DNA of 64,000 nt from a bacterium (GTDB taxonomy: Bacteria > Oederibacteriota > CAKKQC01): positions 87,517 to 151,516 of the forward strand of contig CAKKQC010000007.1 of assembly GCA_919901855.1 (NCBI GenBank), written 5' to 3'. How positions within the stretch are numbered: position 1 is the stretch's first letter; every line of letters starts with the position of its first letter. The notes under the pieces were generated by a model. That model did not search any database and was not told the origin of the DNA. It saw nothing but the letters and a program-made list of their open reading frames with translations. The translations under genes and the position numbers were made by a program. Positions 6,001-35,241 of the stretch are shown in pieces.

Positions 6001-9000
6001 TTGTAGGAACGGCTCCAGAGGAGGGCGCCGTCGGAATCGTACTTGCGCACATGCCAGTTGTTGCCCTGGAGGAGGTCCCAGCGTGCCTCGGCTCCCGCGA
6101 CGATGATATTGCCTCCGCCATCGATTGCCACGGCGTAGGCGCGGTCGAAGTAGTGGGCGGGAGAGTCGTAGGTCACGGTCCAGATCAGGTTGCCCGCGGG
6201 CCCGTACTTCCGGATCAGCCAGTTGCCGTCCTGGAAGATGTCGTACCGGCTCTCATGGCCGGCGACGACGGCGTTGCCCGCCCCGTCCACGGCCACAGCC
6301 GCCGCAGCGTCGGCGTAGTTCGCGGGGGAGTCGTAGTCCACGCTCCACACCTCGTTGGGCGGGCACCGCGCGGCGACCAGGGCGGTCGCGATGTCCAGCC
6401 TCACGCTGTGGACCGAGACCGGACGGTGCAGGCACGCATCCTCGCCCGTCACGGTGGCCGTGAACACGACGGATCCCGCCGCATCGGCGAGGTAGGTCCA
6501 GGTGAACGAGACCGATCCGCCGGGGTCGAGGACCACGGGACCGGCTGGCGTCGGACCGGTGACCAGGCTGGCGGCGCCCCCGGCCGGATGGCATACGAGC
6601 GCGGGGCTGAGGTCGAACAGCGGACCGGTGCCCGGGTTCGAGGCGTCCAGCACGACCGTGACCGGTTGGCCGACCGCCGCGGTCGAGGGCGACACCGTGA
6701 GCGTGGAGGCCAGCTCGCCGGCGGTGCCGGTGACGAGGGTGCCGGACGAGATGGCGGCGAGCAGGCATTCGGTGACCGGATCCGCCGCCTGCGCCCTGCC
6801 GGTCAGCGCCACCGCGCCCTGCCCCGATACGCTCAGGGTCCAGACGAAGACTTGGCGGCTCCCTGCCGCGATCGTGACCGGACCGGACGGTGAGGGCCCG
6901 CTGATCGATTCGACCAGCCCCGCGCCCTGGTCGAGCGTGAGCCAGGGGGTGACGCCCGGAATGTCGACCGCGGCCGTGTCAGTGACCGTGAGCGCGACCT
7001 CGAACCAGCGCCCCGTGCAGGCGCCGGCCGGGATCGAGAGGCTTCCGGTGAGCCATGCCGAGGCCAGCACCGTGATCGCGGGGGATACCCAAGGCCCCGT
7101 GTCGAGCGGACTCCCGCTGTTCGCGTCCCGGCCCGCGACGGTCGCGGTGAACTCGACGCTTCCGCCGGCGGTCGCCCGGTAGACCCAGGTCAGGCTCGTG
7201 CGCTGGCCTCCCTCGAGCCGGGCGACGGGAGGGGGGGAGGAGACGAGTGCGATCCCGCCGCTTCCTCCCGGTGAGAGGGCGGGCCCACCGACATCCAGCG
7301 CGGCGGCCTCCCCCGTGTTGGTGACGGTCGCGACGACGCTGACCAGGTTTCCGCCGCACACGGGGTCGGGCTGGGCCGTCAGCGGCCCTCCTTCCAGGAC
7401 GGCGGGACGCTGGACGGTCAGCACGACCGCGGGGTGCGCGGCCGGCATGGCCACGCCCGAGTTGGCGTCCGCAGCGGTGACCGTGGTCGAGAAGCGGACG
7501 GGCCCGGCCAGGGTCGCCGTGAATGTCCACGTGAACACGATCGCGGAACCGCCGGGCAGGCTCAAGGGAGGCACGGGCCACGGTCCCGCGAGGAGGCCCG
7601 CGTTCCCGGTGCCCGCGAGCAGGAGCGGCTCCATGGTGAGCCCGGCCAGGGCGGCCTGTCCGGTGTTGGTGACAGTCAGTGTGACCATGAAGGACTGGCC
7701 GGTGCTGGCCGGGTTCGGCACCGCCGCCAGCCGGGCATCCATGAGGGCCGGGACCTGGACGAGCGTTCCGGCCGCGTCGCCGTCGCACGGGTTGGCTCCC
7801 GCCGTCGCGTTGAACGCCGCCCGGCCCGTTCCGGTCGCCAGGAAGTGCCACGTAAACGTCTGCGCGCTTCCCGCCGGGACCGGGAACGGGCCGGCGGGAA
7901 CGGGCCCCGACACGAGGGTGACCAGCCCCGCGGCGGGCACGACGGCGATGGCGGGAGACGCCGCCGTCGTGCCGCTGCCGGTGTTCGTCACCGTAAGCGT
8001 GACGTCGAAGGACTGCCCGGAGGAGACCGTGTCCGGCGCGGCCGCGTGCGTGTCGAAGGGAACCGGATCGTCCACGAGGTTCGCCGCGGGGTCGGACGGG
8101 AACGCACGGCTCTCGCCCGTAAACGTGGCCGAGGCCCGGTTCGTGACGAGCGATCCCTGGGCGAGGGCGGAGGACACCGCGATCCGGTAGCCGATCGATC
8201 CCGACCGGCCCGGCGCGACCCGGTCCACGACCCAGCGCAGGACCAGGGGCGCCGCCGTGCCGGGGGCCGGGAGGCCGGGCGTCCACGGGCCGGCCGCCGA
8301 GGAGGCCCATGCCGATGACGTGAGAGCCGGCGTCCCGAGCGCGTCGGCCTGCGCGAAGAGACCGGGCTGGCCGGACGAGAACGCGGTGCCGTTCGGCAGG
8401 GTATCGGTGATGGTGAGCGCGAACGCGTTGGTCCACCCCCCCTTGGTCCACGAGATCGCGTAATCGACCGTCCGGCCCGCGCAGACATATCCGGCGGGGT
8501 TCGCCTGCTTGCGCACGACCAGCCGCGGCACGCCCGTGACCGTGGCCGTCGTCGAGACGTCCGCAAACCGGGGATCGTCCACGCGGGCGACGACCAGGTG
8601 GCGTCCCGGAGTCGCCGACAGGACGAGTGACGTCGTGAACCGGGGCGGGGTGCCCGCCGTGGTCCCCGTGGCCGGCACGATCGCGGCTCCCGGCGGGGAG
8701 GACACCAGCGTGGCGCGCACGGGGACACCCCGGATGGCGGCTCCGGTTCCGTCCCGGGCGACGATCTCGAGGGCCGTGATGAGGCCCGCCTCGTTCGGAT
8801 CAGGGACGGCCTTCACCTCGAGGGAAGCCGGGGACAGTCCCGGGATCGTGAAGGCGGGGAGGGGCATCCACAGGGGGGATTCGCTGTCCCAGTCGGTCAG
8901 GTAGGCGTCCGGCACGCAGGTCACGGGGGCGTAGCCCTCGTTGGGGTTGATGGCGAGCGTCGTCGAATACGAGCTGATGGTGGCGGCCATCCAGGTCTCC

Positions 9001-10604: not shown

Positions 10605-10859
10605 TTCCAGACCTTCCTGCCGCCGTTCATCCGTTCGCCGATCCCTCCCGTCGATTGGAACCCAACGCCTCCACGCACCGGGGACGTGGTCCGGCTCGGC
10701 CCAAGCATCCGTGCCTACCTAATAATATGCACGCGCCGTGCCGGGATGAGCCGTCGCCGTTGCTGGGGATCGGGGAGGCGGGGTGGGGAGAAAATTCCCG
10801 GGGGCGGGGTGCCAGCGCCCCACCGCTGTCAGGTGTCAGTCAGCGCGCCAGCCGCGCTT

Positions 10860-12116
10860 TCAGGACAGGCTGGAGGGAGCGGTGACGGCGAGACAGCCGC
10901 AGAATCCGCCGAACCCGTATGCGCACACGAGCGCGACCCTGGGGGGGCGATCCTCCGCCGACCTCGTGTAGCGCAGCGCGCAGTCCGGATCGCGCTCGCC
11001 CCAGTTCACGGTCGTCGGCACGATCCCGGCGTCCATCATGAGGACCAGCAATGCGGCCTCGACCGCGCCGCTCGCGCCCAGCGTGTGGCCCGTCAGCGGC
11101 TTCGTCCCCACGACGAGAGGCCGGGAGGCGTCCGGCCCGAACACGGCGCCGAGTACCGTGCTCTCGTAGGCGTCGTTCACCCGGGTGCCGGTGCCGTGCG
11201 CGACGATCGTGTCGATGCCCGCCGGCGCGAGTCCGGCGTCGAGCAGGCAGGCGCCCATGGCATCCGTCCCCCCGCTGCCGGCCGGGTCGAAATCGAAGTA
11301 CCCGTGGGCCTCGCCGGCGAGCCCCGACCCCGCGAGCTCCGCACGGACTCTGGCGCCGCGGCGCATGGCATGCTCCCGCGATTCGATGACGAGGACGGCG
11401 GCACCCTCGCCGAGGACCATGCCCCGGCGGCGCCGGTCGAACACGTAGTAGGGATCGCCCGGCTCCGCGGTTGCGAGCACGCCTAGCGAGGCGAAAGACG
11501 CGAGCGTAAACGGCGTGACCGGAGCCTCGGCGGCCCCCGCCAGCACGAGATCCGCCCGCCCCAGCCGCACGAGGTCGGCCGCATGGGCGAGCGAGAACAG
11601 TCCCGTGGCGGAGGCGCACGAGAAGCCCAGCGTGGGGCCGCGCACTCCGTGCCGGATGCCGACGGCGGCGGGGACGAAGCTCGCGTCATGGCGCCGTGGT
11701 TTCACCGCCCCGGGTCCGTGCTCGATCAGGGCGCGCATGGCGTCCTCGGAGGCGGCCGCGCCGCCCTTGCCCGACGACACCGTGACGGCCACCCGGCGGG
11801 GGTCCCAGCTTCCCGGCGCGAGCGCGGCGTCGCGAACGGCGAGGTCCGAGGCGGCGACGGCGAGGTGCAGGACCCGGTCCTGGCGCATCAGAGTGCGGCG
11901 ATCCAGGAATGCGGCGGGATCGAACCCCGGCGCGAGCCCGGCCACCCGGGAGGGGAACGGTGCGGCGTCGAATCCGGTGATGGCCGTCAGTCCCGGCCGG
12001 TCCGCGCGCAGCGCGGCGGTGACGGCTTCGCGGCCCGTCCCCAACGCGCAGATGATCCCGACGCCCGTGATGACTGGCGTACGATCACCGGAAACCCCTG
12101 CCAATTCGGCGTGCAT
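10860..12116 (-). CDS. fabF: Beta-ketoacyl-ACP synthase (KAS I/II, FabF/FabB-like, Cys-His-His triad)
   Basis: Track ORF 10860..12305 trimmed to internal ATG (MHAELAGVSGDRTPVITGVGIICALG). Motifs GFSCASATGLFS, IVAHGTGT and KPLTGHTLGASG. Confidence 0.8.
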   Translation of the reverse strand: MHAELAGVSGDRTPVITGVGIICALGTGREAVTAALRADRPGLTAITGFDAAPFPSRVAGLAPGFDPAAFLDRRTLMRQDRVLHLAVAASDLAVRDAALAPGSWDPRRVAVTVSSGKGGAAASEDAMRALIEHGPGAVKPRRHDASFVPAAVGIRHGVRGPTLGFSCASATGLFSLAHAADLVRLGRADLVLAGAAEAPVTPFTLASFASLGVLATAEPGDPYYVFDRRRRGMVLGEGAAVLVIESREHAMRRGARVRAELAGSGLAGEAHGYFDFDPAGSGGTDAMGACLLDAGLAPAGIDTIVAHGTGTRVNDAYESTVLGAVFGPDASRPLVVGTKPLTGHTLGASGAVEAALLVLMMDAGIVPTTVNWGERDPDCALRYTRSAEDRPPRVALVCAYGFGGFCGCLAVTAPSSLS

Positions 12117-12124
12117 GACGCGGG

Positions 12125-14633
12125 TATGATACCACTCATGGCATTTGCGCCCTGGCTCGCCGCGGTCTGGGGCCTCCTCGTCTGGGGCAACTGGTACCGG
12201 GTCAACTGCGCGCTCGACCATCCCGCCTGGCTCGACCACGTGCGGCAGGCCTTCCTCCTCTGGACGTACGTCGACACCAGAAGCCTCGCGGCCTGGGGCA
12301 CTCATCTCGGCCAGCTCGCCCTCCTCGGCGTGCTCGGAATTGCAGCGGCCGGCGCGGGTGAGCGGGGGCTGAACTGGTGCGGGCGGCGCGGCCGCGACCG
12401 GGGCATCCTCGATGCGACGGCCCTCGGCGCCGGGCTCGCGGCACTCGCGATGCTGGGCGCGGGATTGGCCGGGCTGGCCCGGTTCCTTCCCGTCGCCGCA
12501 GTGGTGGCGGTCGCGGGCGTGGCCGGTCTGCCCTCAGCCCGCCGCGCCGGGCGGCGTGGGTGGGACGCATTTCGGCGGACGGATGCGGGGACCCGGTGGA
12601 TCGCCCTGGGGCTGGCAGCCGCGCTCGCGGTCCCACTCCTGGGCGCGCTCGCCCCTGAGACCTCGGTCGACGCGCAACTACACCACCTCGCCCAGCCCGC
12701 GCTCTTCGCCTCCCTCGGCCGGATCGTCGCCCTGCCCTTCAACGAGTTCTCGCTCCATCCCGCGCTCGTCCACATGCAGTTCCTGATCGCGTTCGTCCTC
12801 GGCGGCGGGGAGGTCGTGGCCAAGCTCGTGCACTTCGGGTGGGGCGTTCTCGTGGCCGCGCTCGTCGCGGTCTGGGCCGGCCGGCGGCTGGGCGCGCGCT
12901 GGGGCCTGGCGGCGTCCGCCGCGTTCGTTCTCCTGCCGTACACGCAGGTCGTGGCCATCCGCGCGTACGTCGAGCTGGCGACGGTCGCGTACCTGACGCT
13001 CCTGATCCGAGACCTCGTGGCACCGGGTGCCAATCCCGTTCTCGTCGGTGTCTGGGGCGGCCTCTGCGCCGGGACCAAGGTCAACGGGCTCATGGCGCCC
13101 GCGCTGGCGGCGGGGGCATTGGCCCTGCGGCGGGCGCCGTGGCGGGTCTGGGGGGCGTGGGCGCTGGCCGGCACCGCCGCGGTCGCGCCGTGGGCTGTCA
13201 AGAACGCCCTCGCCTGCGGCAATCCCACCGGGCGGCTCCTGCCCGGCGTCTTCCCGACGATGTGGTTGGACCCGGAGAACCTGCGTCGGCACGTGATCGA
13301 GCTCGTGGGGGCCGGCCGGGAGCCGATGGCCTTGCCCGGGGCCGCGGGCCTGCTTGCCCGGCCCTGGAACGTGAGCATCCTCAACACCGGGGTCATGGAT
13401 CCCCACAGCGGGATGGGCGGCTGGTTCCTCTGGATTGCGCCGTTCTGTCTGCTCGCCTCCGGCGTCGGGCCGCTCGCCGCGCTCGTGGGCGGCGGGCTCG
13501 TGCTCTGGCAGATCATGCCGCACCTCGTCCGGTACTCGATGCCGCTCTGGCCGGCAATGAGCGTCCTCGGCGCGCAGGGCCTGCGGGCGCTGTCCGCGCG
13601 CGGCTCCGGTGGCCGCGCCGTCGTTGCAGCCGCCGGGCTGGTGCTGGCCGTGCACCTGCCGCTCGCGGTCGCGCGCGAGTTCTCGATCGCGAACCCCTTC
13701 GGCGTCGTCTTCGGTCTCGAGACCCGGAACCACTATCTCGCCCGTGGGTTCCCGGAGCGGGGGCGGACGGTGGCGGCGCAAGCCTGGCTGGCCCCCGAGA
13801 TCGGACGTAGCCGGGTCCTCCTGCTCACGCCGACCGGGCTCTGGCTTCACTGGGGGCCGCGGACGGTTGTTCAGTCGCTGTTCGACACTGCGCTCATCGA
13901 GCGGTTCGCCCGCGAGGAGCGGGACGCGGCGGGGATCGCGAAGCGATTCCGGCAGACCGGGATCGGCTGGACAATCTACCTGCCGCAATCGGGCTGGGCG
14001 CTCGAGCGGACATATGGCACGTGGGCGTTTGAGGAAGGGGCGGCGGCGCGGTGGCGCGCATTCTGGGAAACCCGGGCGGTTCTCGCGCACGCGGAGGGGG
14101 ACCGGATCGTGATCCACCGGCTCCTGCTTGGAGGGTCCGTGCCGCCTAATCCGCCGGATGGGTACCTGCCGGGGCTCGATGAGCGGTGGCTGGCCGAGAC
14201 CGCGGGGCTCGCGGACCGGGGCGACCCCGGCGTGGTGGGCCGGTTCGAGGCCATCGCCCGTGCGACCGGATCGGCGGCGGCGTGGGAACAGGCGGCCGCC
14301 GCGATCCTGAAGGCGGGCGACGAGAAGAAGGCGCTGGCGGCGTTCCGCGAGGCCGAACGCCGCGGCCGGCGCACGGTGGCGACCGCGGCCGCCGTAGGCA
14401 TGCTCGAGGCCCGCGCTGGGCGTCTTCGCCCGGCCGCGGATGCACTGGACATCGCAGTCGCCATCGACCCCTCCCGCGAGGACATCCGGCTCCTGGACGT
14501 GCGCGTGCTCCTCGGCCTTCGCAGGCTCCAGGACGCCGCCCGCGTGCTGGATGACGGGCTCAAGCTCAACCCGGGCTCCGCCGCCCTCGGGGCCGCGTGG
14601 CGCGACCTCACTGGCCGTCCATACCTGAGATAA
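12125..14633 (+). CDS. Polytopic inner-membrane protein with C-terminal TPR repeats (GT-C/PMT-like glycosyltransferase candidate)
   Basis: Real part of track ORF 11583..14633, starting at ATG 12125 (MIPLMAFAPWLAAVWGLLVWG). The upstream portion is antisense to fabF. At least 10 hydrophobic helices, then a TPR-like tail (ILKAGDEKKALAAFREAERRGRRTVATAAAVGMLEARAGR...). Confidence 0.6.
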
Positions 14634-14649
14634 TCGCCTTGGGAGTCCC

Positions 14650-17600
14650 ATGAATCACCGATGGCGAACGGTCCTGGCTCTGGCGGTCCTGGCCGCGGCC
14701 GGGATTTCCCGCCCCGCCTCCGCTGCCTGTCCCGACCTCATCCTGCTGGGCACCACGGACTACAACGGATCGGCAAACGACCACGATGCGGCTTGGGCCG
14801 TGGCCGTCGACGGGAGCGGGAATGTCGTGGTCGTGGGCTATGAGTTCATCTCACCAACGAAGGCTAACTGGCGGATTCGGAAATACGACGCCTCGCTGAC
14901 GACACTGTTGGCAACGACGGACTACGACGGGGGGGCCGTCAACGGCACCGACGCCGCCCATGCCGTCGCCATCGACGGATCCGGGAACATTCTGGTGGCT
15001 GGGAGTATGTACAGCGGCGGGACGCACTGTATGATCCGCAAGTACGACCCGATGCTCACGACGCTGTTGGCTGCGACCGAGTACGCGGCTGCGGCCGACG
15101 CCAGGGGTCTCATCCTCGACGGCAGCGGCAACGTCGTCGTGGCGGGCGAGGGGGGGAGTCCCGCCAGCGGGAACGACTGGCGGATCACGAAGTTCGACCC
15201 CGCCTTGACCACGGTCCTGACGACCACGGACTTCAGCAGTCCCGGGTTTGCTTACGACATGCTGTGGGCGCTTGCGCAGGACGGGTCCGGGAACATCATC
15301 GCCGCGGGGACCGAGGGCGACCAGTTCTCCCCCTTTACCGAGAAGTGGCGCATCCGGAAGTACGACGCGTCGTTGACGACCCTGCTCGCGTCGACGGACT
15401 ACATCGCGGGCACTGGATTCTCCAACGCTCCTTCTGCCGTCGTTGTTGGCGCCGGCGGGAACATACTTGTAGTCGGAATCGAAGATGGGGTCTGGCAGAT
15501 GCGGATCAGGGAGTACAACGCGTCGTTGACGACGCTGCTGGCAACGACAGTCTACGCCGGGCCGGGAACCAACGAGCTGGGTCGATCCGCCGCCCTCGAC
15601 AGCAGAGGGAACCTGGTGGTGGTCGGGGAGGAGCAGGGGTTGAGTTGCGGATCGAACTGGAGGATCGGGAAGTACGATGCCTCGCTGACGACGATGCTGG
15701 CGACCACGACCTACGAAGCCTGCCACAATCCGGGGGACAACGCCGGCCCGTGGGCGATCGCGGTTGACGGCCGGGACAACCTCATGGTGGCCGGATACGA
15801 GACGGACTCCACGGGGTATCACAACTGGCGCATCAACAAGTACGGCCAGCCGGCGTGCCTCGATGCGGTGCTGGCGTTCTCGCGGACGATCGTGTCGCCG
15901 GGGCAGTGGGTCACGGTCATGCTCACGGTCACGAACGCGGGCGGGGCGGTCCTGAACGGAATTCCGACACTGGGGCAGGACGCGGGCCCCGGCACGGGCG
16001 CGATCACGGCGGGGCCGACGCCGTCGGCGACGACCGTCCTACCGACCGGCCAGTCGATGACGTTCACGTGGTCGTTCTCGGCGTCGGGCGCCGGACTCGT
16101 CGAGCTGACCGGGACCTTGACCGGCTGGGATCTGTCGCTGTCGGCGACCACGTGGGTGCAGGCCACGGGTTCCTTCCTGATCCAGAAGCGGCCGGCGCTG
16201 TCGGCGTCGCTGGTCATGACCTCGGCTTCCAGTCTATTGCCGGGCGACGCCATCGTCCTCGTCTTCACGGTCAGCAACTCGGGGGAGGCGGGGGCGACGG
16301 TTACACCGCGGCTGCCCAAGGTCTCGGGGTCGGGGACCGGCTACCTCGCGCTCAGTCCGGTGGCCCTGGTCGTGCCCGGCGGCGGCAGCGTCTCGTTCAC
16401 CTGGGTCTACACCGCCGGGCCCGCGGCGTCCTCGCTCTCGTTCACGGCTTCCGGAAACGGCACCGACGTCAACTCCGGGGTCGCGGTTCCGGTGCCGCAG
16501 GGGGCGGCGGGGCCGGTCGTCGTCACCGCTCCGTCCACGCCATGCGTTTCCGCGCCGACCCGGATCACGTTCTACGACGGCCGGGCCAACGGGGACGACG
16601 AGGGCAACGGGATAGCGGTGCCGTCCTCGGGATCGATCTTCGTCGCCTGCGAGGAGAACCGCGAGGAGAGCGGCCGGCTGACGGACTGCCTCGTGATCGG
16701 CTACCCGCCAGGCGGCGGCGCTCTCTACTGGGCGGGCGAGTACGGGGCCGTCGGGAGCGTGGCGGACGCCGCGTACGGGGTTACGACGGGCCCGGACGGC
16801 TCCGTCTACTCGGTCGGCCATTCGGGGAACAGCGCGTGGATAGAGCGCTGGGACCCGTTCCCGCCGGGCGCCATGGACTGGATCCTGCTCCTGGCGGAGT
16901 CGCCCGGGGGGCCCGACGAGCTCAGGTCCGTGATGTTCGCCCCCGACGGGAATCTCGTCGTTGCCGGAAAGCAGCGGCGCACGGATATCGGCCATGGCGA
17001 CGACGTCTGGGTCGCGAAGTACGACCCGACGGGCGGGCTCGTCTGGTCGGTCAACTACAACAGCCCCGCTAACTCGGACGACCTGGCCTACGCCGTGACC
17101 GTGGACCTGTCTGGATCGATCTACGTCGCGGGAGCCGAAACCCGGACGGATCTCGGCCAGGGACGGAACATCCTCGTGCTCAAATACAGTGCCTCCGGCG
17201 CCCTGCTCTGGACCCGGTCGTACACGAGCCCGGGGATCGCCAACGACGAGGGGCGCGCGATCGCCGTGGACGGGACCGGGAATCTCTACGTGGGAGGCTA
17301 CGAGACGCGCAACGATCTCGGGCAGGGCGAGAACGGCTGGGTCCGCAAGTGCTCGCCCGCGGGCACGCCCCTCTGGACGGCCACCTTCAACTCGCCGATG
17401 ACGCGGTTCGGCGGGCCGAACGACCGGGCGCTCGGGATCGCGGTGGACCCCGTCAACGGCGACGTCTTCGCGACCGGGCGGGTGGAGCGTCCCGGACAGG
17501 CGGCCAACGTCCTGTTCGCCCGGTGGGACGCGTCGGGGACGCTCCTCGATCTCCAGACCCGGAACGGGCCGAACAACGGCAACGATGAGGGCCGCGCGAT

Positions 17601-20328
17601 CACGGTCGGTCCCGGCGACGACCTCTACGTGGCCGGGTTCGAGAACTGGGACAACCTGGCCCAGAAGGAGAACGTGACGACGTACCAGTGGCCGCGGCCC
17701 GGGTGCCTCAAGGCGGCGCTGTCGGTATCGCCGGTACCCGTCTGGTCGGGACTGCCGATCGAGGTCGTGCTCACGGTCACGAACACGGGGGCGAACGCGG
17801 TCACGTCGGTGACGCCCGTGCTCACGATCGCGCCCGGCGCCGGGCTCCTGTCGCTGCTGACCGCGCCCTCGCCGCTCGCCAGCCTCGGCCCGGGCGCGTC
17901 CGCGTTCTTCACCTGGACCTACGCGACCGCGGGGACGGGGCCCGTGGCGTGCACGGCGACCGTGACCGGCGTCGAGTCCGTGAGCGGGCTGTCCATGACG
18001 GCCTGGGGGTACGCCGAGACCCTCGTGCAGGGCGCCGCGAGTCTGGCGGGCGCGGTCAGCCTGCCGGCATCGACCTGCCAGGCGATGCCGTTCACGCTGG
18101 CGGTGACAATCACCAACACCGGGCTGGGCGGCGCGTGGCTGGGAAGCGCGACCGTGCTCGTCACCGGGTTGCCCGCGTCCGCCCTCGGCGGCCCGGTGCC
18201 GCCGCTGCCGCTCACGCTCGGGGTGGGGAACGCGGTCACGCTCGCCTGGACGTGGTCGGCGGCGGGCGCGGGCGCCGCGACTTTCTCGGTGACCGTGACC
18301 GGCGCGGATCTCACTGGCGGCGGCGGGCTGGCCGTGGGGCCGCTGGGCGCCGATATCGCCGTCACGGGGCGCGCGGCACTCGAGGCGAGTGCTCGCGCCA
18401 CCCCGGCCGCGGCCGTGGGAGGCGGGATCACGGTGGAGCTCACGGTGACGAACACCGGGCTCACCATGGCGACCGGCCTCACCCCCGCCCTCGCGGTCTC
18501 TCCGCCCGGCGCGCCCGTTCTCGGCTGGGCCGGTCCGTCGCCACCGGGCCCGGTCGCCCTCGCCCCCGGCGCGGCCCAGACCTTCGCCTGGTCGTACACG
18601 GCGACGGGATGGGGGACCGTGACCTTTGCGATGACGGTGGCCGGGGCTGATTCCTGTGGCGCGATCTCATCGGCGGCGACCGCAACTGCGTTCCTCGGGA
18701 CACCAGCCACGCTCGTCGGGTCCGTCGTGTCCGCGATCGCCTCCCCGCTCTGTGTCGGATCGTATGTCCTTGTCGTTGTCTCGGTCACGAACACTGGGAA
18801 TGCTCCTGCCGTTGGCGTTGCGGGAACGACGACCCTGTTCATCGAGGGCCCGGGCACCGCGTCGCTCCAGTTTGTGTCGAACCCGGTGGCGTCGCTCGGA
18901 CCAGGCGCCTCGGCTCACTTCACTTGGCAATACGCGACTACCGGTGTGGGAGCGATTCGGTTCACCGCGACCGTAGCCGGTACGGATGCGGCTTTGGGGG
19001 GGCCGGTGCGGACGGCGCCGTTGACCACCCCGACTACGGATCTTACCGTGCCAGCCAATATCTGGATACATCCGGCGGTGTCGCCGGTGGTGGCGATGCT
19101 GGGCCAGTTGGTTACCGTGACTTTGACGGTGACCAACATGGGAGGGGACGCCGCTGGGGTTTCGGCGGCTGCGTGGACAATCGAACCCGGCATGACCACG
19201 CGGATATCCGGGCCCTCACCTCCGGGTCCCATTGCCCTACCGTCCGCGGCGTCCCAGACGTTCAGCTGGACGTTCTCCGCGTCCGGAGCAGGGGTGTCAA
19301 CTTTCACCTTCAGCGTAACGGGATCGTCATGCGGAGGCCCGGTTGCGTTTATGCGCGGTGACGTTCGCCCATTCTGGATTGTCCGGCCCGCCCTCCTGGT
19401 CGCGAGCGGCCTCACGCTGGCCCCCGGCAGTCCCGGGGCGGGTGCGACCGTCGTGGCCACGATGGTACTGCGCAACGACGGCGACCTCGATCTCACGGTC
19501 ACCTCGTTCTCGCGCACGGTAGTCGGCGTCGCCGGGCTTGGGGCGCCGGGGGCGCCGACGCCGGGGCCGGGGTTCATGCTCACGGCGGGCGGCTCGCAGT
19601 CGGTCACGTGGACGCAGACGACGACAGCGCCGTGTGGAGTGGCTGCGGAAACCGTCAGCGCCGCCGGCGTCGAGTTCAGCACCGGGCGGATCTTGTCGTC
19701 CAATACGGTGACCTCGAACGCGGTTTCGATCACGGGCACCGCGACGGGCTTCACGCTCTCCGCCTCCGCCGCGAAGGCGAACGTGGGAACTCCGGTCACG
19801 CTGACGGCCATGGTAACCGACGCGTGCGGCGGGGCCGTGCCCAACCTGACCGTGACGTTCACCGTGAGCGCCGGCGGCGGGTGGCTCTCGGCCGTCACGG
19901 GGACCACGAACTTCTCCGGGCGGGTCACGGTCACGCTCACGCTCGGGCTCGACGAGGGGCGCAACACCGTGGTGGCATACGTGGGCGGGACGACGCTGAC
20001 CGCCCTCGTGGCCGTCGAGGCCGTGAACCCGCTCGTCCTCACGTCGCCGGGCGCGGCGCTCGACAAGAACGTCCTCGTCCTCAACTCGGGGCAGGTCGTG
20101 CTGGCCCGCATCTGGCCGCTCAATGGCGACCCCATCGTGACCCGCATCTTCACCGCATCGGGGAGGTTGGTCCGCACGCTCAGGAAGCTGACGCCCTCCG
20201 GCCGCGGCCAGTTCCTCGTCGAGTGGGACGGGCTGAGCGAGGACGAGTTCGCGGTCGCCCGCGGCGTCTACCTCGTGGACGTCGAGGGCGGCGGCATCCA
20301 CCAGATCCTGAAGGTGTTGGTTCGCTGA
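14650..20328 (+). CDS. Giant secreted surface protein (1892 aa): signal peptide, SBBP beta-propeller, DUF11-like repeats, second propeller, long DUF11/Ig-like array, Big-like domain, T9SS-type (Por_Secre_tail/FlgD-Ig-like) C-terminal domain
   Basis: Track ORF; signal peptide MNHRWRTVLALAVLAAAGISRPASAAC; repeats ...AVAVDGSGNVVVVGYE...NWRIRKYDASLTTLL; many LTVTNTG...FTW modules; C-terminus ...GRGQFLVEWDGLSEDEFAVARGVYLVDVEGGGIHQILKVLVR. RBS gggag lies upstream of the ATG. Confidence 0.85.
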   Translation: MNHRWRTVLALAVLAAAGISRPASAACPDLILLGTTDYNGSANDHDAAWAVAVDGSGNVVVVGYEFISPTKANWRIRKYDASLTTLLATTDYDGGAVNGTDAAHAVAIDGSGNILVAGSMYSGGTHCMIRKYDPMLTTLLAATEYAAAADARGLILDGSGNVVVAGEGGSPASGNDWRITKFDPALTTVLTTTDFSSPGFAYDMLWALAQDGSGNIIAAGTEGDQFSPFTEKWRIRKYDASLTTLLASTDYIAGTGFSNAPSAVVVGAGGNILVVGIEDGVWQMRIREYNASLTTLLATTVYAGPGTNELGRSAALDSRGNLVVVGEEQGLSCGSNWRIGKYDASLTTMLATTTYEACHNPGDNAGPWAIAVDGRDNLMVAGYETDSTGYHNWRINKYGQPACLDAVLAFSRTIVSPGQWVTVMLTVTNAGGAVLNGIPTLGQDAGPGTGAITAGPTPSATTVLPTGQSMTFTWSFSASGAGLVELTGTLTGWDLSLSATTWVQATGSFLIQKRPALSASLVMTSASSLLPGDAIVLVFTVSNSGEAGATVTPRLPKVSGSGTGYLALSPVALVVPGGGSVSFTWVYTAGPAASSLSFTASGNGTDVNSGVAVPVPQGAAGPVVVTAPSTPCVSAPTRITFYDGRANGDDEGNGIAVPSSGSIFVACEENREESGRLTDCLVIGYPPGGGALYWAGEYGAVGSVADAAYGVTTGPDGSVYSVGHSGNSAWIERWDPFPPGAMDWILLLAESPGGPDELRSVMFAPDGNLVVAGKQRRTDIGHGDDVWVAKYDPTGGLVWSVNYNSPANSDDLAYAVTVDLSGSIYVAGAETRTDLGQGRNILVLKYSASGALLWTRSYTSPGIANDEGRAIAVDGTGNLYVGGYETRNDLGQGENGWVRKCSPAGTPLWTATFNSPMTRFGGPNDRALGIAVDPVNGDVFATGRVERPGQAANVLFARWDASGTLLDLQTRNGPNNGNDEGRAITVGPGDDLYVAGFENWDNLAQKENVTTYQWPRPGCLKAALSVSPVPVWSGLPIEVVLTVTNTGANAVTSVTPVLTIAPGAGLLSLLTAPSPLASLGPGASAFFTWTYATAGTGPVACTATVTGVESVSGLSMTAWGYAETLVQGAASLAGAVSLPASTCQAMPFTLAVTITNTGLGGAWLGSATVLVTGLPASALGGPVPPLPLTLGVGNAVTLAWTWSAAGAGAATFSVTVTGADLTGGGGLAVGPLGADIAVTGRAALEASARATPAAAVGGGITVELTVTNTGLTMATGLTPALAVSPPGAPVLGWAGPSPPGPVALAPGAAQTFAWSYTATGWGTVTFAMTVAGADSCGAISSAATATAFLGTPATLVGSVVSAIASPLCVGSYVLVVVSVTNTGNAPAVGVAGTTTLFIEGPGTASLQFVSNPVASLGPGASAHFTWQYATTGVGAIRFTATVAGTDAALGGPVRTAPLTTPTTDLTVPANIWIHPAVSPVVAMLGQLVTVTLTVTNMGGDAAGVSAAAWTIEPGMTTRISGPSPPGPIALPSAASQTFSWTFSASGAGVSTFTFSVTGSSCGGPVAFMRGDVRPFWIVRPALLVASGLTLAPGSPGAGATVVATMVLRNDGDLDLTVTSFSRTVVGVAGLGAPGAPTPGPGFMLTAGGSQSVTWTQTTTAPCGVAAETVSAAGVEFSTGRILSSNTVTSNAVSITGTATGFTLSASAAKANVGTPVTLTAMVTDACGGAVPNLTVTFTVSAGGGWLSAVTGTTNFSGRVTVTLTLGLDEGRNTVVAYVGGTTLTALVAVEAVNPLVLTSPGAALDKNVLVLNSGQVVLARIWPLNGDPIVTRIFTASGRLVRTLRKLTPSGRGQFLVEWDGLSEDEFAVARGVYLVDVEGGGIHQILKVLVR

Positions 20329-20375
20329 CCGGCAGCCGGTCAGCGAATTCGAGTTTCGGCGGACGCCGAAACTCG
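20325..20375. terminator. Two adjacent GC-rich hairpins between convergent genes (candidate bidirectional terminators without U-tract)
   Basis: ctgaccgg-cagc-ccggtcag (8-bp stem, overlaps the TGA of the giant gene) and cgagtttcgg-cggacg-ccgaaactcg (10-12 bp stem). Confidence 0.4.
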
Positions 20376-20382
20376 TCGTGCG

Positions 20383-21609
20383 CTAAAAGGCGTCAATCTC
20401 CCAGAACACGGGCCGGCCCCGGGGGAAGAGGGCGTCGAGGAGGACGATCTCGCGGTCGCCGACCGTGGACGCGCGGGCGAAGGGCTGGAGCGAGAACGGT
20501 TTCGCGCCGCTGAAGACCTCGATCCACCGCGCCGGCTCCAGCACCGCCCGCGGCAGCTCCCCGGACGCCGTCGCCTCCACCTCGACGCGGTCCTCGTTGA
20601 GCCGCACAGTCGCGGTCTGGTCGCGGTACCCGATTACGACGGCGCCACGGGCCACGCCCGCCCGCGCGGCGCGCGCGGCAAGCTCGGGGGCGAGGGCGCG
20701 GAGGAAACCTGCGAGGTACGCGATACGGAGCAGGATCCAGTCGGCGGGGATGTCGACCGGAGCTTCGGTGAACGGGGCGAGCGCGGCTCCCAGCTCGAAG
20801 CACGGGGCGGGATACTGGAGTCCGCGCACGCCCCGGAGAAACGCCTCGCGCAAATAGGCGCGCGCGAGGGCGCGGGTGGACTCCTCGGCGCCGGGCAGGG
20901 TGCCGAACTCGAGGACCTTGGACCACGTATGGTCGGGGTCCGCCGTCGCGCGGAGGTAGGCGGCCGGCTGGGCGTGGCTGTCCTCGGCGACCAGCGCGCA
21001 CGCGGGCTCCTCCTTCGGATACACGGTCGTCCACTCGGGCTGCCGCTCCCATACGGCTTCGGCCGCCGGGATCGTGCCCGTGAACCCGGCCGCGTACCGG
21101 CTCCGGATCGCGAGCAGGGCCGCGCGGTCGCGACCGAAGTCGATCGCGCGGACCACGGGGCCGGGGCCGGCGCCGGCGGGCGGCCGGAGCCGGAGCAGGT
21201 GCGTCTCCCGGCGCGGCGACGGTTCGTACCCGAGCGGCTGGTAGAAACCCGGGATCTGGGTCGAGAGCAGGGAGAGGGGACGGCCGTCCGCGCGCATGAG
21301 TTCGTGGGCGGCGGCCAGGAGCCGCCGCGCGAGCCCGCGCTTGCGCCACGCGGGATCCGTGACGACGTTCGCGATACCGCCGCAGGGCACCCGGGCGGAC
21401 CCGAACGCGAGGTCGAACCCGATGGCGTGGACGGTCGAGACGACCCGGCCGGCGTCCCGGACCACGAGCGGCGCGCCCGGCAGGTTCTGGGGGTCCCGGC
21501 GCATCCGGGTCGCGAAGTACGCGGCGCCGACGCCGAGCTCGCGGGCGCAAAGCGCCGCGATGCCGTCGAACTCCTCCGGGCGTGCCGGTTCCACCGTGAG
21601 GTCCGTCAT
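20383..21609 (-). CDS. Eis-like GNAT N-acetyltransferase (GNAT plus SCP2-like C-terminal domains)
   Basis: Track ORF; GIANVVTDPAWRKRGLARRLLAAAHELMRADG acetyl-CoA motif; ~400 aa typical of the Eis family. Confidence 0.75.
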   Translation of the reverse strand: MTDLTVEPARPEEFDGIAALCARELGVGAAYFATRMRRDPQNLPGAPLVVRDAGRVVSTVHAIGFDLAFGSARVPCGGIANVVTDPAWRKRGLARRLLAAAHELMRADGRPLSLLSTQIPGFYQPLGYEPSPRRETHLLRLRPPAGAGPGPVVRAIDFGRDRAALLAIRSRYAAGFTGTIPAAEAVWERQPEWTTVYPKEEPACALVAEDSHAQPAAYLRATADPDHTWSKVLEFGTLPGAEESTRALARAYLREAFLRGVRGLQYPAPCFELGAALAPFTEAPVDIPADWILLRIAYLAGFLRALAPELAARAARAGVARGAVVIGYRDQTATVRLNEDRVEVEATASGELPRAVLEPARWIEVFSGAKPFSLQPFARASTVGDREIVLLDALFPRGRPVFWEIDAF

Positions 21610-21705
21610 GCCGCCCTGAGTGTATCAGGGCCATGGATTGACGGCCCTGTCGCATTGCAGGGAAGGGGTTTCAGCGTTCCCCGGGATCTCCGGGGCTTGT
21701 CCGGT

Positions 21706-21736
21706 TTGACACTTTCCGGCCCAAGCCTTCTATAAT
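21706..21736 (+). promoter_or_regulatory. Near-consensus sigma70-type promoter TTGACA-N19-TATAAT upstream of gene 21767..22723, followed by AGGAGG RBS at ~21753
   Basis: ttgacactttccggcccaagccttctataat read directly; aggagg 8 nt before ATG 21767. Confidence 0.4.
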
Positions 21737-21766
21737 CAGGCCATCGAGGGACGAGGAGGTGCGGGT

Positions 21767-22723
21767 ATGCACAAGCGGGCGGGGGCGGGCATTCTGAAGC
21801 TGGCATCAATCATCGTGGTCGCCGGGATGGTGGCGGGCGCCGCGCGCGCCTCGGACCTGCTGGGTCCCATCTGGCATCTCAACGGCAAGCACATCGGCGA
21901 CGCCGATCCGCTGGTGTGGACGATCGAGTACTACGACGAATGGGGCCGCACGGTCGTCGACGCCGCGGGCGGACATTTCTACCACGACCGGTGCTGCGGC
22001 GGCGTGGTCACGCACGATCCATCGTGGGTTTACCCCGCGAAGTACTACGGCCAGTACAAGATGTACTACATCGGGACCACGATGCGGTACCGGATCACGC
22101 TCACGAATCCCGGCAATCGCAGCTACACGAACCTGCGCATCGTCGCGATCCAGGAGTACCTGACGAACGACGGGACGTGGGGCGAGTGGATTTCGCCCGA
22201 CGCCGCGAAGGACTGGTATATCACCGAACTCCGGTCGGGCCAGACGGTGGTGTTCGAGGGCGACCTCTACATCCCCTACGGGGCGCATGGCGGCCTCGAC
22301 CAGACGCACCTGCAGGTCCAGCACTTCGATCCGAACAATCCCACCGGCGGGGGCGCGGTCATCCTCGACGACGCGCAGGCCGCCATCTGGTGCCCGCCGG
22401 ACCTCCAGCAGGGCGCCACGGCCCCGGCGCCGGGCGGCATTCTCGTGAAGGCCGGCGATCGCGGCTGGGTCCAGCCGGGCTCCGGCTCACCGGCGCGGAT
22501 CGAGGTCGGCGCGACCGACGCGGGGCAGATCTCGCTCCGCATCTACGACCGCCGCGGCACGCTGGCCCGCGAGATGTTCGCCTACGCGAGCGGCGAGGGT
22601 ACGGTCGTGTTCTCGTGGGACGGCACGCTGTCGTCCGGCCAGCCCGCGGCCCCCGGCGTCTACCTCGTCGTGGCCGACGGCTCCGGCGTCCACGCCAAGG
22701 AGAAGCTCGCGGTCGTCAGGTAG
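21767..22723 (+). CDS. Secreted hypothetical protein with T9SS-type C-terminal sorting domain
   Basis: Track ORF; N-terminal hydrophobic signal; C-terminus GQISLRIYDRRGTLAREMFAYASGEGTVVFSWDGTLSSGQPAAPGVYLVVADGSGVHAKEKLAVVR resembles the Por_Secre_tail / FlgD-Ig-like fold. Confidence 0.75.
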   Translation: MHKRAGAGILKLASIIVVAGMVAGAARASDLLGPIWHLNGKHIGDADPLVWTIEYYDEWGRTVVDAAGGHFYHDRCCGGVVTHDPSWVYPAKYYGQYKMYYIGTTMRYRITLTNPGNRSYTNLRIVAIQEYLTNDGTWGEWISPDAAKDWYITELRSGQTVVFEGDLYIPYGAHGGLDQTHLQVQHFDPNNPTGGGAVILDDAQAAIWCPPDLQQGATAPAPGGILVKAGDRGWVQPGSGSPARIEVGATDAGQISLRIYDRRGTLAREMFAYASGEGTVVFSWDGTLSSGQPAAPGVYLVVADGSGVHAKEKLAVVR

Positions 22724-22748
22724 CCCAAGGGCGGGAGGCGTTGCGACG

Positions 22749-23666
22749 GTGAACGCCTCCCGCCCTTTCGTTTTCCTCCCGGTCCTCGTGGCGTGCGCGT
22801 GTTCGCGCCCCGCCCTCGCCGACGACGCTTCCAATCCCCTCGACCTCGTCGAGCCCGCGCGTATCCAGGCACTCGGCGGCGCCGCCGCCGCCGTTGACCG
22901 CGACGCCACCGGCGTCTGGCTCAATCCCGCCGCGCCGTCCGGGAGCGGCCGGTCCGTGACCCTCGGCGGCCAGCGGGGGTTCATCGAGGACCAGACCTGG
23001 CAGATCTCGGGGGCGGCTCCCGCGGGCCCCCTGACCGCCGCGGCCGGCCTCGCGTACTACGACTCGGGAAGCATCACGCTCCGCAACACCGACGGGGGTG
23101 CCCGGCGGGTATCGGGGCAGCGGGACATCCTCGCCCTCGCCAACGCCAGCGGCGTCTTCGGGGGCGTCGTGAGCCTGGGGGGATCGGTCAAGATCCTGCG
23201 CAGCGACCTCCTCGACCAGTTTCACGCGACGACGGTGGCCGCCGACGCCGGCCTCGTCGTGCGGCCGGCGGAGGACTTCGCGGCGGGCGTCAGTGTCGTC
23301 AACGTGGGGCGAAGGGTGCGGTACGCGGACGAGCGGGTGCCCCTGCCGGCGGCGGTCCGGGCGGGCGGATCGGCGGCGACGCCGGTCGAGGGCGATGGCG
23401 GGATCTCGCCCGACCGGCTTGCGGGGTTCTTGGACGCCGTCTGGCTCCTCCGCGAGCGCCGGGTCGAGTGGCGGGGCGGGGTGGAGGCGTACTGGACGCA
23501 GACGCTGGCCGCGCGGGCGGGTGTGAGCCCGTCGCGCGGCAACGAGTCCTGGCGCGCCGCCCTCGGGGTCGGGGTCTTCATCGGAAAACTGCGCATCGAC
23601 TACGCGATCCAGCTCTCGGGCCCGTCTTCCCTCCCGCAGGTCCTGAGCCTCACCGTGCGGTTGTGA
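22749..23666 (+). CDS. PorV/PorQ-family-like outer-membrane beta-barrel protein (T9SS-associated candidate)
   Basis: Track ORF, GTG start after gggagg; signal peptide; N-terminal motif NPLDLVEPARIQALGGAAAAVDRDATGVWLNPAAP resembles the PorV/PorQ family signature; beta-strand-rich, ends in aromatic/hydrophobic residues. Confidence 0.55.
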   Translation: MNASRPFVFLPVLVACACSRPALADDASNPLDLVEPARIQALGGAAAAVDRDATGVWLNPAAPSGSGRSVTLGGQRGFIEDQTWQISGAAPAGPLTAAAGLAYYDSGSITLRNTDGGARRVSGQRDILALANASGVFGGVVSLGGSVKILRSDLLDQFHATTVAADAGLVVRPAEDFAAGVSVVNVGRRVRYADERVPLPAAVRAGGSAATPVEGDGGISPDRLAGFLDAVWLLRERRVEWRGGVEAYWTQTLAARAGVSPSRGNESWRAALGVGVFIGKLRIDYAIQLSGPSSLPQVLSLTVRL

Positions 23667-26098: not shown

Positions 26099-27256
26099 TC
26101 AATAACGGTCGGCGCAGAGGGTGTAAGGGAGCGCGGGCGGGAAGAGCGCCGAGAGCGGCTCTACCGCGTCACCTGGAATCCTGACCCCGGGCTCCAACAT
26201 CGCGTCCCCGACGGTCCGGTACCCGATCAGCAGCTGGGTCAGGATGCCCTGCGGAATCGTGGCCCGCAGGCCGGAGGCGCCGGGCAGGACCCGCACCCGC
26301 CCGTCTGCCGCCGCCAGCCGGACCTCGCCGAGCTCGCACCCGATCCGGACGGCGAACTGCGACCGCGCCAGTCCCGAGGCCCGCAGCCGCCGCGTCAGCT
26401 CACCCTCGCAGTCGCGGAAGGTCTTCTCGAGGCACATGATCCGCGCCATCCCGTCGCCGTTCCGCCAGTAGTGGAGCGTGACGTCGAGCGCGAACCGCCT
26501 CAGGTACCGGGCGTAGGCGTGGTCGGGCGGGACATGAAGCGTCATGTCGGGAACCCGTCGCGCCTTCGCCCGCTTCGCGAACTCGGCCGCGAGGGCGGGA
26601 AACACCTCGGGGGTCCGGTAGCCGGCCTCGGTCACGATCAGGGCCTTCCGGTCCTGGTCGTTGACGCCGTAGCCCTCGACGCGTCCGCCGCGGAGTACGA
26701 CAAACGACTCCGCCCGGCGGAACCACCACGAGCCCAGGCGGAACCCCCGCCAGTGGCGGGCCGGGGGGCGCACGACCGAGAGTGGGCGAAGCGCCTCGTT
26801 GGCGGCGTAGAGGGCGAGGACCTGGGATCCGTGCCGGTCGCGATTGAACGGCACGATGCGGTAGCCGGCCGGCATCGTCGAAGGCGCGGCGCCGGTCGCG
26901 AGCTTGAGCCGCGGCTCCGGGATCGCCTGCGCGTAGCCCCAGCGATGGTAGAAGTTCGGGATGCCGAAGAGCGCCGTGAGGTGAAAACCGTCCCGTTCCA
27001 TGATTTCGAGGCACTTGAGCATGCAGAGCGAGGAGTAGCCCTTGTTCCGGTGCTCCTTGGCCGTGCCCACGCCCCCGATGCCGCCGACGCGGAGCCGGGC
27101 CTCCCCGACGCGCATGATGAAGTGGTTGATCATGATCCAACTCACCTTATCCGCGCGGTGGTAGAGGTTCACGACGGTCATGGGCCACCGGCCTTCCCTA
27201 TGAATGTAGAAGGCGAGGTCGGGGCCGAGCCGGCTGTCGGGGGAGGCGTGTACCAT
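26099..27256 (-). CDS. GNAT-family N-acetyltransferase, Eis-like (second copy in window)
   Basis: Track ORF; RVGGIGGVGTAKEHRNKGYSSLCMLKCLEIMERDG acetyl-CoA motif. The true start may be the internal Met (MTVVNLYHRADK). Confidence 0.7.
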   Translation of the reverse strand: MVHASPDSRLGPDLAFYIHREGRWPMTVVNLYHRADKVSWIMINHFIMRVGEARLRVGGIGGVGTAKEHRNKGYSSLCMLKCLEIMERDGFHLTALFGIPNFYHRWGYAQAIPEPRLKLATGAAPSTMPAGYRIVPFNRDRHGSQVLALYAANEALRPLSVVRPPARHWRGFRLGSWWFRRAESFVVLRGGRVEGYGVNDQDRKALIVTEAGYRTPEVFPALAAEFAKRAKARRVPDMTLHVPPDHAYARYLRRFALDVTLHYWRNGDGMARIMCLEKTFRDCEGELTRRLRASGLARSQFAVRIGCELGEVRLAAADGRVRVLPGASGLRATIPQGILTQLLIGYRTVGDAMLEPGVRIPGDAVEPLSALFPPALPYTLCADRY

Positions 27257-35150: not shown

Positions 35151-35241
35151 GTCTTCGATATTGTAGGCCCAAATGTCCGCTGGGCCAAGGTGTTATACTA
35201 CCGCCCATGCCGGGCCCAGCGAGAGCGGCGATCCGCGCCCG

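Follow-up and report, generated by a model that had tools for sequence, protein, structure and literature searches.

A 64-kb window of contig CAKKQC010000007.1 (71% G+C) was analysed, the window being the whole stretch of DNA to which the coordinates below refer unless another locus is named. The subject of this report is a pair of adjacent genes on its forward (+) strand. Gene A (12126..14633) is predicted to encode a polytopic glycosyltransferase of the GT-C fold with a C-terminal tetratricopeptide repeat (TPR) domain, and gene B (14650..20328) is an open reading frame (ORF) for a secreted multidomain surface protein of 1892 aa, the length given in a preliminary description of this DNA. The extreme C-terminus of B resembles the sorting domains carried by type IX secretion system (T9SS) cargo. 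The reading that we consider probable is that the pair comprises a GT-C enzyme and a surface protein with a T9SS-like tag, each identifiable in its own right, with the coupling between them unproven.

The gene A product is 100% identical to NCBI entry AAB152_03945, annotated as 'MAG: hypothetical protein' (MAG, metagenome-assembled genome) from a Candidatus Coatesbacteria bacterium. The NCBI taxonomy lists Candidatus Coatesbacteria among the unplaced candidate phyla. For the product of gene B, and for that of a 761-aa gene close to the right end of the window, exact-sequence look-ups returned no entry.

The gene pair and its junction

Gene A had originally been started at position 12125, and this is corrected here to the ATG at 12126, which gives a product of 835 aa, or to the ATG at 12138, which gives 831 aa. 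A longer ORF (11583..14633, 1016 aa) was rejected as gene A, since codon-position GC assigns its first ~540 nt to a beta-ketoacyl synthase gene on the opposite strand (10860..12116, -). Because opposite-strand coding extends up to ~12100 by the same measure, only the two ATG codons are retained as candidate starts, and the NCBI version of the protein, at 831 aa, points to ATG 12138. Gene A and the ketoacyl-synthase gene are divergent, with start codons ~10-21 bp apart (12116-12138), so close together that any promoters would have to lie inside the adjoining coding regions.

The description of A and B as an operon-like pair separated by 16 bp is borne out. Both genes are on the same strand, A ends at 14633 and B starts at 14650, and the 16-bp spacer (14634..14649, +) contains the sequence GGGAG at 14641-14645, four bases 5' of the gene B ATG. 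The junction reads TAA-tcgcctt-GGGAG-tccc-ATG, in which GGGAG is the ribosome site. A scan of the junction for terminators found no terminator-like hairpin between the two genes. The genes are co-directional and, we infer, probably co-transcribed.

Gene A encodes a predicted GT-C glycosyltransferase

The predicted A protein begins with a GT-C transmembrane core (12126..13700, +; aa 1-525), in the model of which ~4 extra N-terminal helices precede an ArnT-like module. The core is followed by an alpha/beta domain (13701..14165, +; aa 526-680 in the model), which would be periplasmic and which separates the membrane core from the TPR domain (14175..14612, +; aa 684-829). An AlphaFold model of the protein built on 14 homologs (pLDDT 84.7, pTM 0.85) was compared with known structures using Foldseek. 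The top matches were to ArnT (5ezm/5f15; E 6e-7 and 2e-6, target TM 0.52), and further matches, with E-values to 4e-4, were to AftA, 8b6l_I (from the human Sec61-TRAP-OSTA translocon entry), ALG12 and ALG9. The relationship to ArnT is at the level of fold only (15-17% identity, TM 0.36-0.52). The C-terminal 150 residues of A matched designed consensus TPR proteins and the TPR of OGT which, together with weak TPR hidden Markov model (HMM) matches, is in keeping with the TPR assignment of the preliminary description.

Sequence comparisons point in the same direction. A profile of the A family searched against PDB sequences matched ArnT (5ezm; E 0.006) and, less strongly, GPI mannosyltransferase 1 (E 0.03). 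When six close A homologs, all of them lacking a GT-C Pfam match, were compared using hhalign with eight distant homologs carrying PF13231/PF02366, the two sets were linked at a probability of 100% (E 1.6e-51) over 570 columns covering aa 77-666, and the alpha/beta domain was found to be conserved in the PMT_2-bearing relatives also. An exhaustive HMMER search with the close A-family profile returned 500 cluster representatives at E <= 1e-30. Among 61 relatives sampled, PF13231 (PMT_2) was present in 39/61 and PF02366 (PMT) in 17/61, with Alg9-like matches in 2/61, a TMEM260-like match (PF11028) in 1/61 and TPRs in ~18.

In GT-C enzymes the first periplasmic loop bears a catalytic acid. The candidate for this residue in A is Asp182 (codon 12669..12671, +), which loop charges and conservation would place in that loop. 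In this topology the helix leading to D182 is preceded by an Arg-rich, presumably cytoplasmic loop with 6 K/R in 21 residues. Residues D182, K318, P367 and R469 are invariant in 62/62 aligned A-family sequences, and D182 is also conserved in 14/14; an acid (D or E) occupies position 283 in 14/14 and, in the profile alignment, stands opposite an Asp of ArnT. Judged by sequence, K318 and R469, both invariant, would be suited to binding the phosphate of a lipid-phosphate sugar donor.

Two observations tell against assigning A to the GT-C enzymes. A check of A against GT-C HMMs, as had been suggested, matched no glycosyltransferase model in Pfam or NCBIfam even at E 10, and returned weak TPR models only. 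Moreover, GT-C membership is shown only via intermediates and fold. Because the fold, the PDB sequence profile, the profile-profile link and the wider relatives all agree, A is nonetheless placed in the GT-C superfamily. On this combination of homology and modelling, A is predicted to be a divergent GT-C glycosyltransferase, a member of the PMT/PMT_2 clan that falls below the curated PMT_2/PMT models. The earlier label 'GT-C-like' is upheld by the fold, the invariant catalytic-type residues and the PMT_2/PMT homology.

Gene B encodes a predicted secreted multidomain protein

The N-terminus of B, MNHRWRTVLALAVLAAAGISRPASA followed after the predicted cleavage point by ACPD, can be read as a Sec signal peptide (14650..14724, +; aa 1-25, ASA/A cleavage), as had been proposed. 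A lipoprotein reading was considered and set aside, since 'SAAC' has Ser at -3, atypical for a lipobox, and cleavage by signal peptidase I at ASA/A appears preferable.

Iterated self-HMMs resolved 8 Ig modules and 14 propeller blades in the remainder of the protein. The signal peptide is followed by propeller 1 (14782..15861, +; aa 45-404), which is built of seven repeats and thus seven-bladed, and by Ig-like modules 1-2 (15856..16524, +; aa 403-625), which are of the DUF7507/CARDB type as judged from Pfam DUF7507 and the self-HMM. Propeller 2 (16594..17691, +; aa 649-1014) is again seven-bladed by its seven repeats and is of the SBBP/delta-60 type. It leads into Ig-like modules 3-8 of the CARDB type (17698..19740, +; aa 1017-1697; self-HMM and Pfam CARDB), a Big_1 domain (19750..20001, +; aa 1701-1784; PF02369, 39.9 bits against a cutoff of 34.9) and a C-terminal FlgD_ig-type beta-sandwich (20083..20325, +; aa ~1812-1892), which is a putative T9SS-like sorting domain.

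The two propellers and the Big-like domain noticed at the outset are therefore present. The ~15 DUF11/Ig modules first reported, however, were an overcount of the 8 CARDB/DUF7507-like modules found by the iterated self-HMM. The label 'SBBP/DUF11' holds in part: SBBP/delta-60 matches are significant (E-values of 2e-16 and 4.6e-16) though below cutoff (NF047494, 59.7 against 400; TIGR02608, 58.4 against 76.5), whereas DUF11 (PF01345) has no match in B, where DUF7507 and CARDB match instead.

The C-terminal domain of B as a putative sorting tag

The pattern ...WDG...GVYLV...KVLVR, on which a T9SS-type C-terminal domain (CTD) had been proposed, is present at the end of B. FlgD_ig (PF13860) scored 25.5 bits on the full protein and 26.9 bits on the tail alone (E 5e-6) against a cutoff of 27, and PF13860 is carried by 5/5 database homologs of the tail. 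The suggested check of the tail against the T9SS models themselves came out negative: TIGR04183 reached 16.2 bits against a cutoff of 23 (E 0.0075) and PF18962 had no match in B at E 10. When a profile of the CTD was searched against the PDB, FlgD was the best match (E 2e-6), and the next, marginal matches (E 0.03-0.9) were to the C-terminal CTDs of PorU, HBP35, PorZ and RgpB, those of the first three falling at E 0.03-0.2, the matched regions being residues 1079-1134 of 1156 in PorU and 263-343 of 344 in HBP35.

The B CTD is modelled as a 7-strand sandwich of ~80 aa at the extreme C-terminus, and its Foldseek matches include PorZ, PorU, the T9SS-bound NucA CTD and FlgD among generic Ig folds. 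In the CTD alignment K100, which lies in the last strand four residues from the C-terminus, is invariant together with WDG and GVY. The features emphasised for T9SS CTDs are a 7-strand, 3+4 sandwich and a last strand that holds a conserved Lys (PMC11285876).

Searches with a local HMM of the CTD showed that the domain is terminal in all carriers found and that it sits on passengers of unrelated folds. The carriers comprise B and its orthologs, a 318-aa secreted neighbour in the window (21767..22723, +; FlgD_ig 40-43 bits, phmmer against the B CTD E 3e-8), a 1335-aa Kelch protein in related locus L004, a partial 446-aa protein in L009, and NHL-repeat and DUF11/Kelch proteins in L016, a 59%-GC contig.

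Pairing of CTD genes with PorV/PorQ-family genes

Directly 3' of the 318-aa CTD gene lies a gene (22749..23666, +) for a predicted PorV/PorQ-family-like outer-membrane barrel of 305 aa with a signal peptide, which matches NF033709 over its full length (E 2.3e-18). The corresponding proteins of L004 and L008 are above the cutoff of this model, at 125 and 116 bits. A CTD gene followed by a PorV/PorQ-family gene was found for five such genes in four genome contexts, namely the window (21767-23666), L009 (1-2109), L004 (1-4723) and, twice, L016 (2392-5807 and 8111-12061), and the identity between the PorV/Q genes of these recurring pairs falls to 32-38%. The same order is seen in L011/L012 (79% identity), in L009/L010 (38%, from another Coatesbacteria MAG) and in L004/L006. 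The window pair is found downstream of B at a distance of 1.4 kb; no PorV/Q gene directly follows B itself. A scan of metagenome data with the PorV/Q-like family yielded four loci, too few for statistics. As judged from sequence, the lineage holds bona fide PorV/PorQ-family proteins that are genetically tied to this CTD.

The PorV/PorQ-family proteins of L004 (3449-4723) and L008 (2311-3591, -) carry a C-terminal TPR extension. The segment of the window containing the CTD gene, the PorV/Q gene and a 783-aa gene is flanked by two Acetyltransf_9-type GNAT genes (20383-21609, -, and 26099-27256, -), an arrangement kept in L011.

Whether the tail of B is a sorting domain must be weighed against another explanation, that it is a plain Ig/FlgD-like structural or adhesive module and that B reaches the surface or the periplasm by another route. 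The top HMM and PDB sequence matches of the tail, which are to flagellar FlgD rather than to T9SS CTDs, would fit this explanation, and several further points count against a sorting function. Neither FlgD_ig nor TIGR04183 reaches its curated cutoff on the tail, and the Foldseek matches of the tail are generic Ig folds at E ~1e-3. The window PorV/Q-like protein scores 66.9 bits against the NF033709 cutoff of 90, and a search of the PDB by sequence with this protein and its profile found no PorV, only spurious HPr matches. None of the T9SS core genes (PorK/L/M/N, SprA, PorU) was seen in the 64-kb window and the short related loci, no genome-wide search having been made. The NCBI taxonomy does not place Coatesbacteria in the FCB group. 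According to a review, several FCB phyla other than Bacteroidota may have T9SS. Literature searches found no link of Coatesbacteria to T9SS and none of PF13860 to T9SS.

Against a purely structural module stand the position of the domain at the extreme C-terminus of passengers of unrelated folds in every case seen, its seven strands and invariant last-strand Lys, features of T9SS CTDs (PMC11285876), and the five genes that, in four contexts, are each followed directly by a PorV/PorQ-family gene. The structural explanation is for these reasons considered very unlikely. Because the domain is terminal on unrelated passengers and the genes are then followed by PorV/PorQ-family genes, the wider evidence, from sequence and from modelling, favours the B CTD being a T9SS-like sorting domain. 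The original proposal of a T9SS CTD on B is accordingly supported by the fold, the conserved Lys, the terminal position and the PorV/Q pairing, but not by the expected match to the curated HMMs.

Gene order and the question of coupling

A had been proposed as a candidate dedicated glycosyltransferase of B. Spelled out, this model makes A an O-glycosyltransferase that would act in the periplasm, ahead of T9SS export, on Ser/Thr of the Ig-like modules, with its TPR domain recognising B. The arrangement of the junction is what such a pairing would lead one to expect, with the two genes on one strand, a 16-bp gap, a ribosome site and no terminator. Gene order was compared in related loci, designated L001 onwards. 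Only the nearest relative, L001, preserves the arrangement of A and B, with A 79% and B 68% identical. In L001 the B ortholog is flanked, in convergent orientation, by a second and different PMT_2+TPR gene (687 aa, 18215-20278, -), and this too would suit a glycosylated B. The second gene is, however, absent from the window, in which the GNAT gene follows B after only 55 bp. A Macro-domain gene (21568-22107) that precedes the 318-aa CTD gene in L001 is likewise absent from the corresponding part of the window (21610-21766). That both the PMT_2+TPR gene (window 20329-20382) and the Macro gene are missing points to recent indels around B.

More distant homologs give a different picture. In L002 (49% identity) the A homolog and three further GT-C paralogs stand four in a row (7356-17536), interrupting the nuo (NADH dehydrogenase) cluster. 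In L003 and L004 (40-43%) the A homolog is in a tandem pair with a third paralog near, beside rplU-rpmA, the GT-C/TPR paralog arrays spanning 5043-12574 in L003 and 5189-12535 in L004. No B-like gene was found beside the A homologs in L002, L003 or L004. A genome-contig profile scan with the close A family returned one locus, L008. The loss of adjacency at 40-49% identity, with homologs in arrays of 3-4 paralogs near nuo or rplU-rpmA, argues against a dedicated enzyme. CTD proteins also appear frequent (~6 in ~146 kb of fetched DNA) and the GT-C family is expanded, so that one adjacent pair per genome would be expected by chance.

The PorV/PorQ+TPR genes of L004 and L008 adjoin GT-C paralogs, the L008 gene being flanked by GT-C-like genes on both sides. 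The proximity of GT-C genes to PorV/Q genes (window, L004 and L008) was considered as evidence of coupling and rejected: the loci were chosen via A, those of L004 and L008 may be orthologous, and L002, L003 and L016 lack such a link.

The composition of B leaves room for O-glycosylation, with Thr at 11% and Ser at 8%, but the Bacteroidota-type O-glycosylation motif D(S/T)(A/I/L/V/M/T) occurs only once in B. Precedent speaks for a dedicated enzyme. Characterised enzymes combining GT-C and TPR are protein glycosyltransferases; TfpW is encoded beside the gene for its substrate, pilA; and TMEM260 and TMTC1-4 mannosylate the Ig-like IPT and cadherin domains. Taking both sides together, it is rather unlikely that A is the dedicated O-glycosyltransferase of B, and equally doubtful that B is even one among the substrates of A. 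The dedication of A to B is, as it stands, an unsupported hypothesis for which adjacency provides the sole ground: this adjacency is seen only in the 79%-identical relative, and the homologs at 40-49% identity lie in arrays lacking a B-like gene. Given that the A family forms expanded paralog arrays in this lineage, finding A next to B is best read as lineage-specific placement.

A could, on the other hand, act on a non-protein acceptor, such as lipid A/lipopolysaccharide core or an envelope polysaccharide, and be unrelated to B; in a variant of this explanation, A would build or modify the glycolipid that anchors T9SS cargo. The nearest solved structure is that of ArnT, the lipid A aminoarabinose transferase, followed by AftA and ALG proteins, which act on glycans. 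The paralog arrays stand in housekeeping neighbourhoods, and the GT-C paralogs beside the PorV/PorQ+TPR genes of L004 and L008 would fit a role in the envelope or in anchoring. ArnT and the glycan-building GT-C enzymes, however, are without TPR domains, the enzymes combining GT-C and TPR that were checked in the literature (TfpW, TMEM260 and TMTC1-4) all modify proteins, and the likeness to ArnT is one of fold (17% identity, TM 0.36-0.52). A non-protein acceptor is considered a possible, though not a likely, explanation.

Other features of the window

A giant ORF of >3572 aa (3-10718, -) runs off the left end of the window, so that its C-terminus lies outside. It combines a fervidolysin-like prodomain and a subtilase S8 domain with numerous DUF11/DUF7507 repeats, and is conserved in L001. 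A second unusual ORF (41389-46428, +; 1679 aa) is a fusion of Ser/Thr kinase, WD40, T2SS-F (platform) and T2SS-E (ATPase) domains; it is preceded by another kinase-WD40 gene (35173-38586). The GC skew is raised over 36-48 kb of the window.

Discussion

The data can be assembled into a model for the two proteins that is considered the most likely. By analogy with the PMT/PMT_2 clan, A would reside in the inner membrane and take a sugar from a polyprenyl-phosphate carrier at the periplasmic face, with Asp182, the acid at position 283, Lys318 and Arg469 forming the putative active and phosphate-binding site. The alpha/beta and TPR domains, if periplasmic, would most likely serve to recruit the acceptor, which is probably a protein, given that TfpW, TMEM260 and TMTC1-4, likewise GT-C+TPR enzymes, glycosylate proteins. 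B would be exported by Sec and fold into two propellers and a stalk of Ig-like modules. Its CTD would then be recognised by outer-membrane proteins of the PorV/PorQ family belonging to a T9SS-like system, and B may be displayed on the cell surface as an adhesin or a surface-layer-type protein.

A more ambitious version of this scheme can be drawn. In it, Coatesbacteria would possess a T9SS-like display system in which cargo with FlgD_ig CTDs is served by cargo-linked PorV/PorQ shuttles and its Ig modules are O-glycosylated in the periplasm in a substrate-specific manner by an expanded set of GT-C+TPR enzymes, A being dedicated to B as a bacterial counterpart of TMEM260/TMTC with Ig-like domains as its target. 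This version is regarded as improbable.

If the identifications hold, T9SS-type tags and the PorV/PorQ family extend to the little-studied candidate phylum Coatesbacteria, and a divergent branch of PMT/PMT_2, unannotated ('hypothetical protein') in NCBI, is added to the clan. Were the coupling of A to B also true, it would represent a bacterial, substrate-linked GT-C+TPR enzyme acting on the Ig-like modules of a secreted adhesin, a parallel to eukaryotic TMTC/TMEM260 and to Pseudomonas TfpW, and a tractable pair in which to study the choice of glycosylation clients by TPR domains. At present, the gene pair is a reasonable annotation improvement and no surprise, and the most interesting by-product of the analysis is the recurring pairing of a cargo gene with a PorV/PorQ-family gene.

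Comparison with known systems

ArnT of Cupriavidus metallidurans (5EZM/5F15) is both the best structural match of A and its only significant PDB sequence-profile match. Both proteins are polytopic with an Asp in the first periplasmic loop (a predicted position in A). They differ in that A has ~4 extra N-terminal helices, another periplasmic alpha/beta domain and the TPR, and in that the acceptor of ArnT is lipid A.

The closest bacterial parallel in domain plan is TfpW, the pilin D-arabinofuranosyl transferase of Pseudomonas aeruginosa, which like A joins a GT-C core to a C-terminal periplasmic TPR domain and for which, as for A, the best templates are ArnT and the TPR of OGT. The tfpW gene also lies immediately beside the gene for its substrate. 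TfpW is, however, a 646-aa protein encoded downstream of pilA, and its substrate is a type IV pilin and not T9SS-type cargo; moreover, the tfpW-pilA linkage is conserved across species whereas the A-B linkage is not. No sequence relationship between TfpW and A was seen, no search aimed at one having been made. The TfpW preprint was all that a literature search for a Bacteroidota GT-C/TPR O-oligosaccharyltransferase returned. In eukaryotes, TMTC1-4 (GT105) and TMEM260 combine GT-C with a lumenal TPR, to which the presumed periplasmic location in A would correspond, and their clients are Ig-like domains (cadherin EC and IPT). A, by contrast, is bacterial and lineage-restricted, and matches neither family.

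B can be compared with type A CTD cargo of the Bacteroidota (RgpB, HBP35, PorU and PorZ), with which it shares a signal peptide, a multidomain build and a terminal sandwich, in B a modelled one, of ~80 aa and 7 strands with a last-strand Lys. It is unlike them in scoring under the TIGR04183 cutoff, in lacking PF18962, in matching FlgD_ig better, and in having a host outside the Bacteroidota. Large T9SS cargo is exemplified by the S-layer proteins TfsA and TfsB of Tannerella forsythia, which are O-glycosylated in the periplasm before export (PMC11611037) and are the kind of precedent behind the original proposal. This occurs via a general, phylum-wide pathway, and no substrate-adjacent GT-C enzyme is described there (PMC11611037). 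Finally, the pairs of type B CTD and PorP/SprF genes in Flavobacterium johnsoniae resemble the CTD/PorV/Q pairs in that a cargo gene is followed by a gene for a small T9SS-shuttle barrel, but in the pairs described here the predicted barrel is PorV/PorQ and not PorP/SprF, and the CTD is FlgD_ig- and type-A-like.

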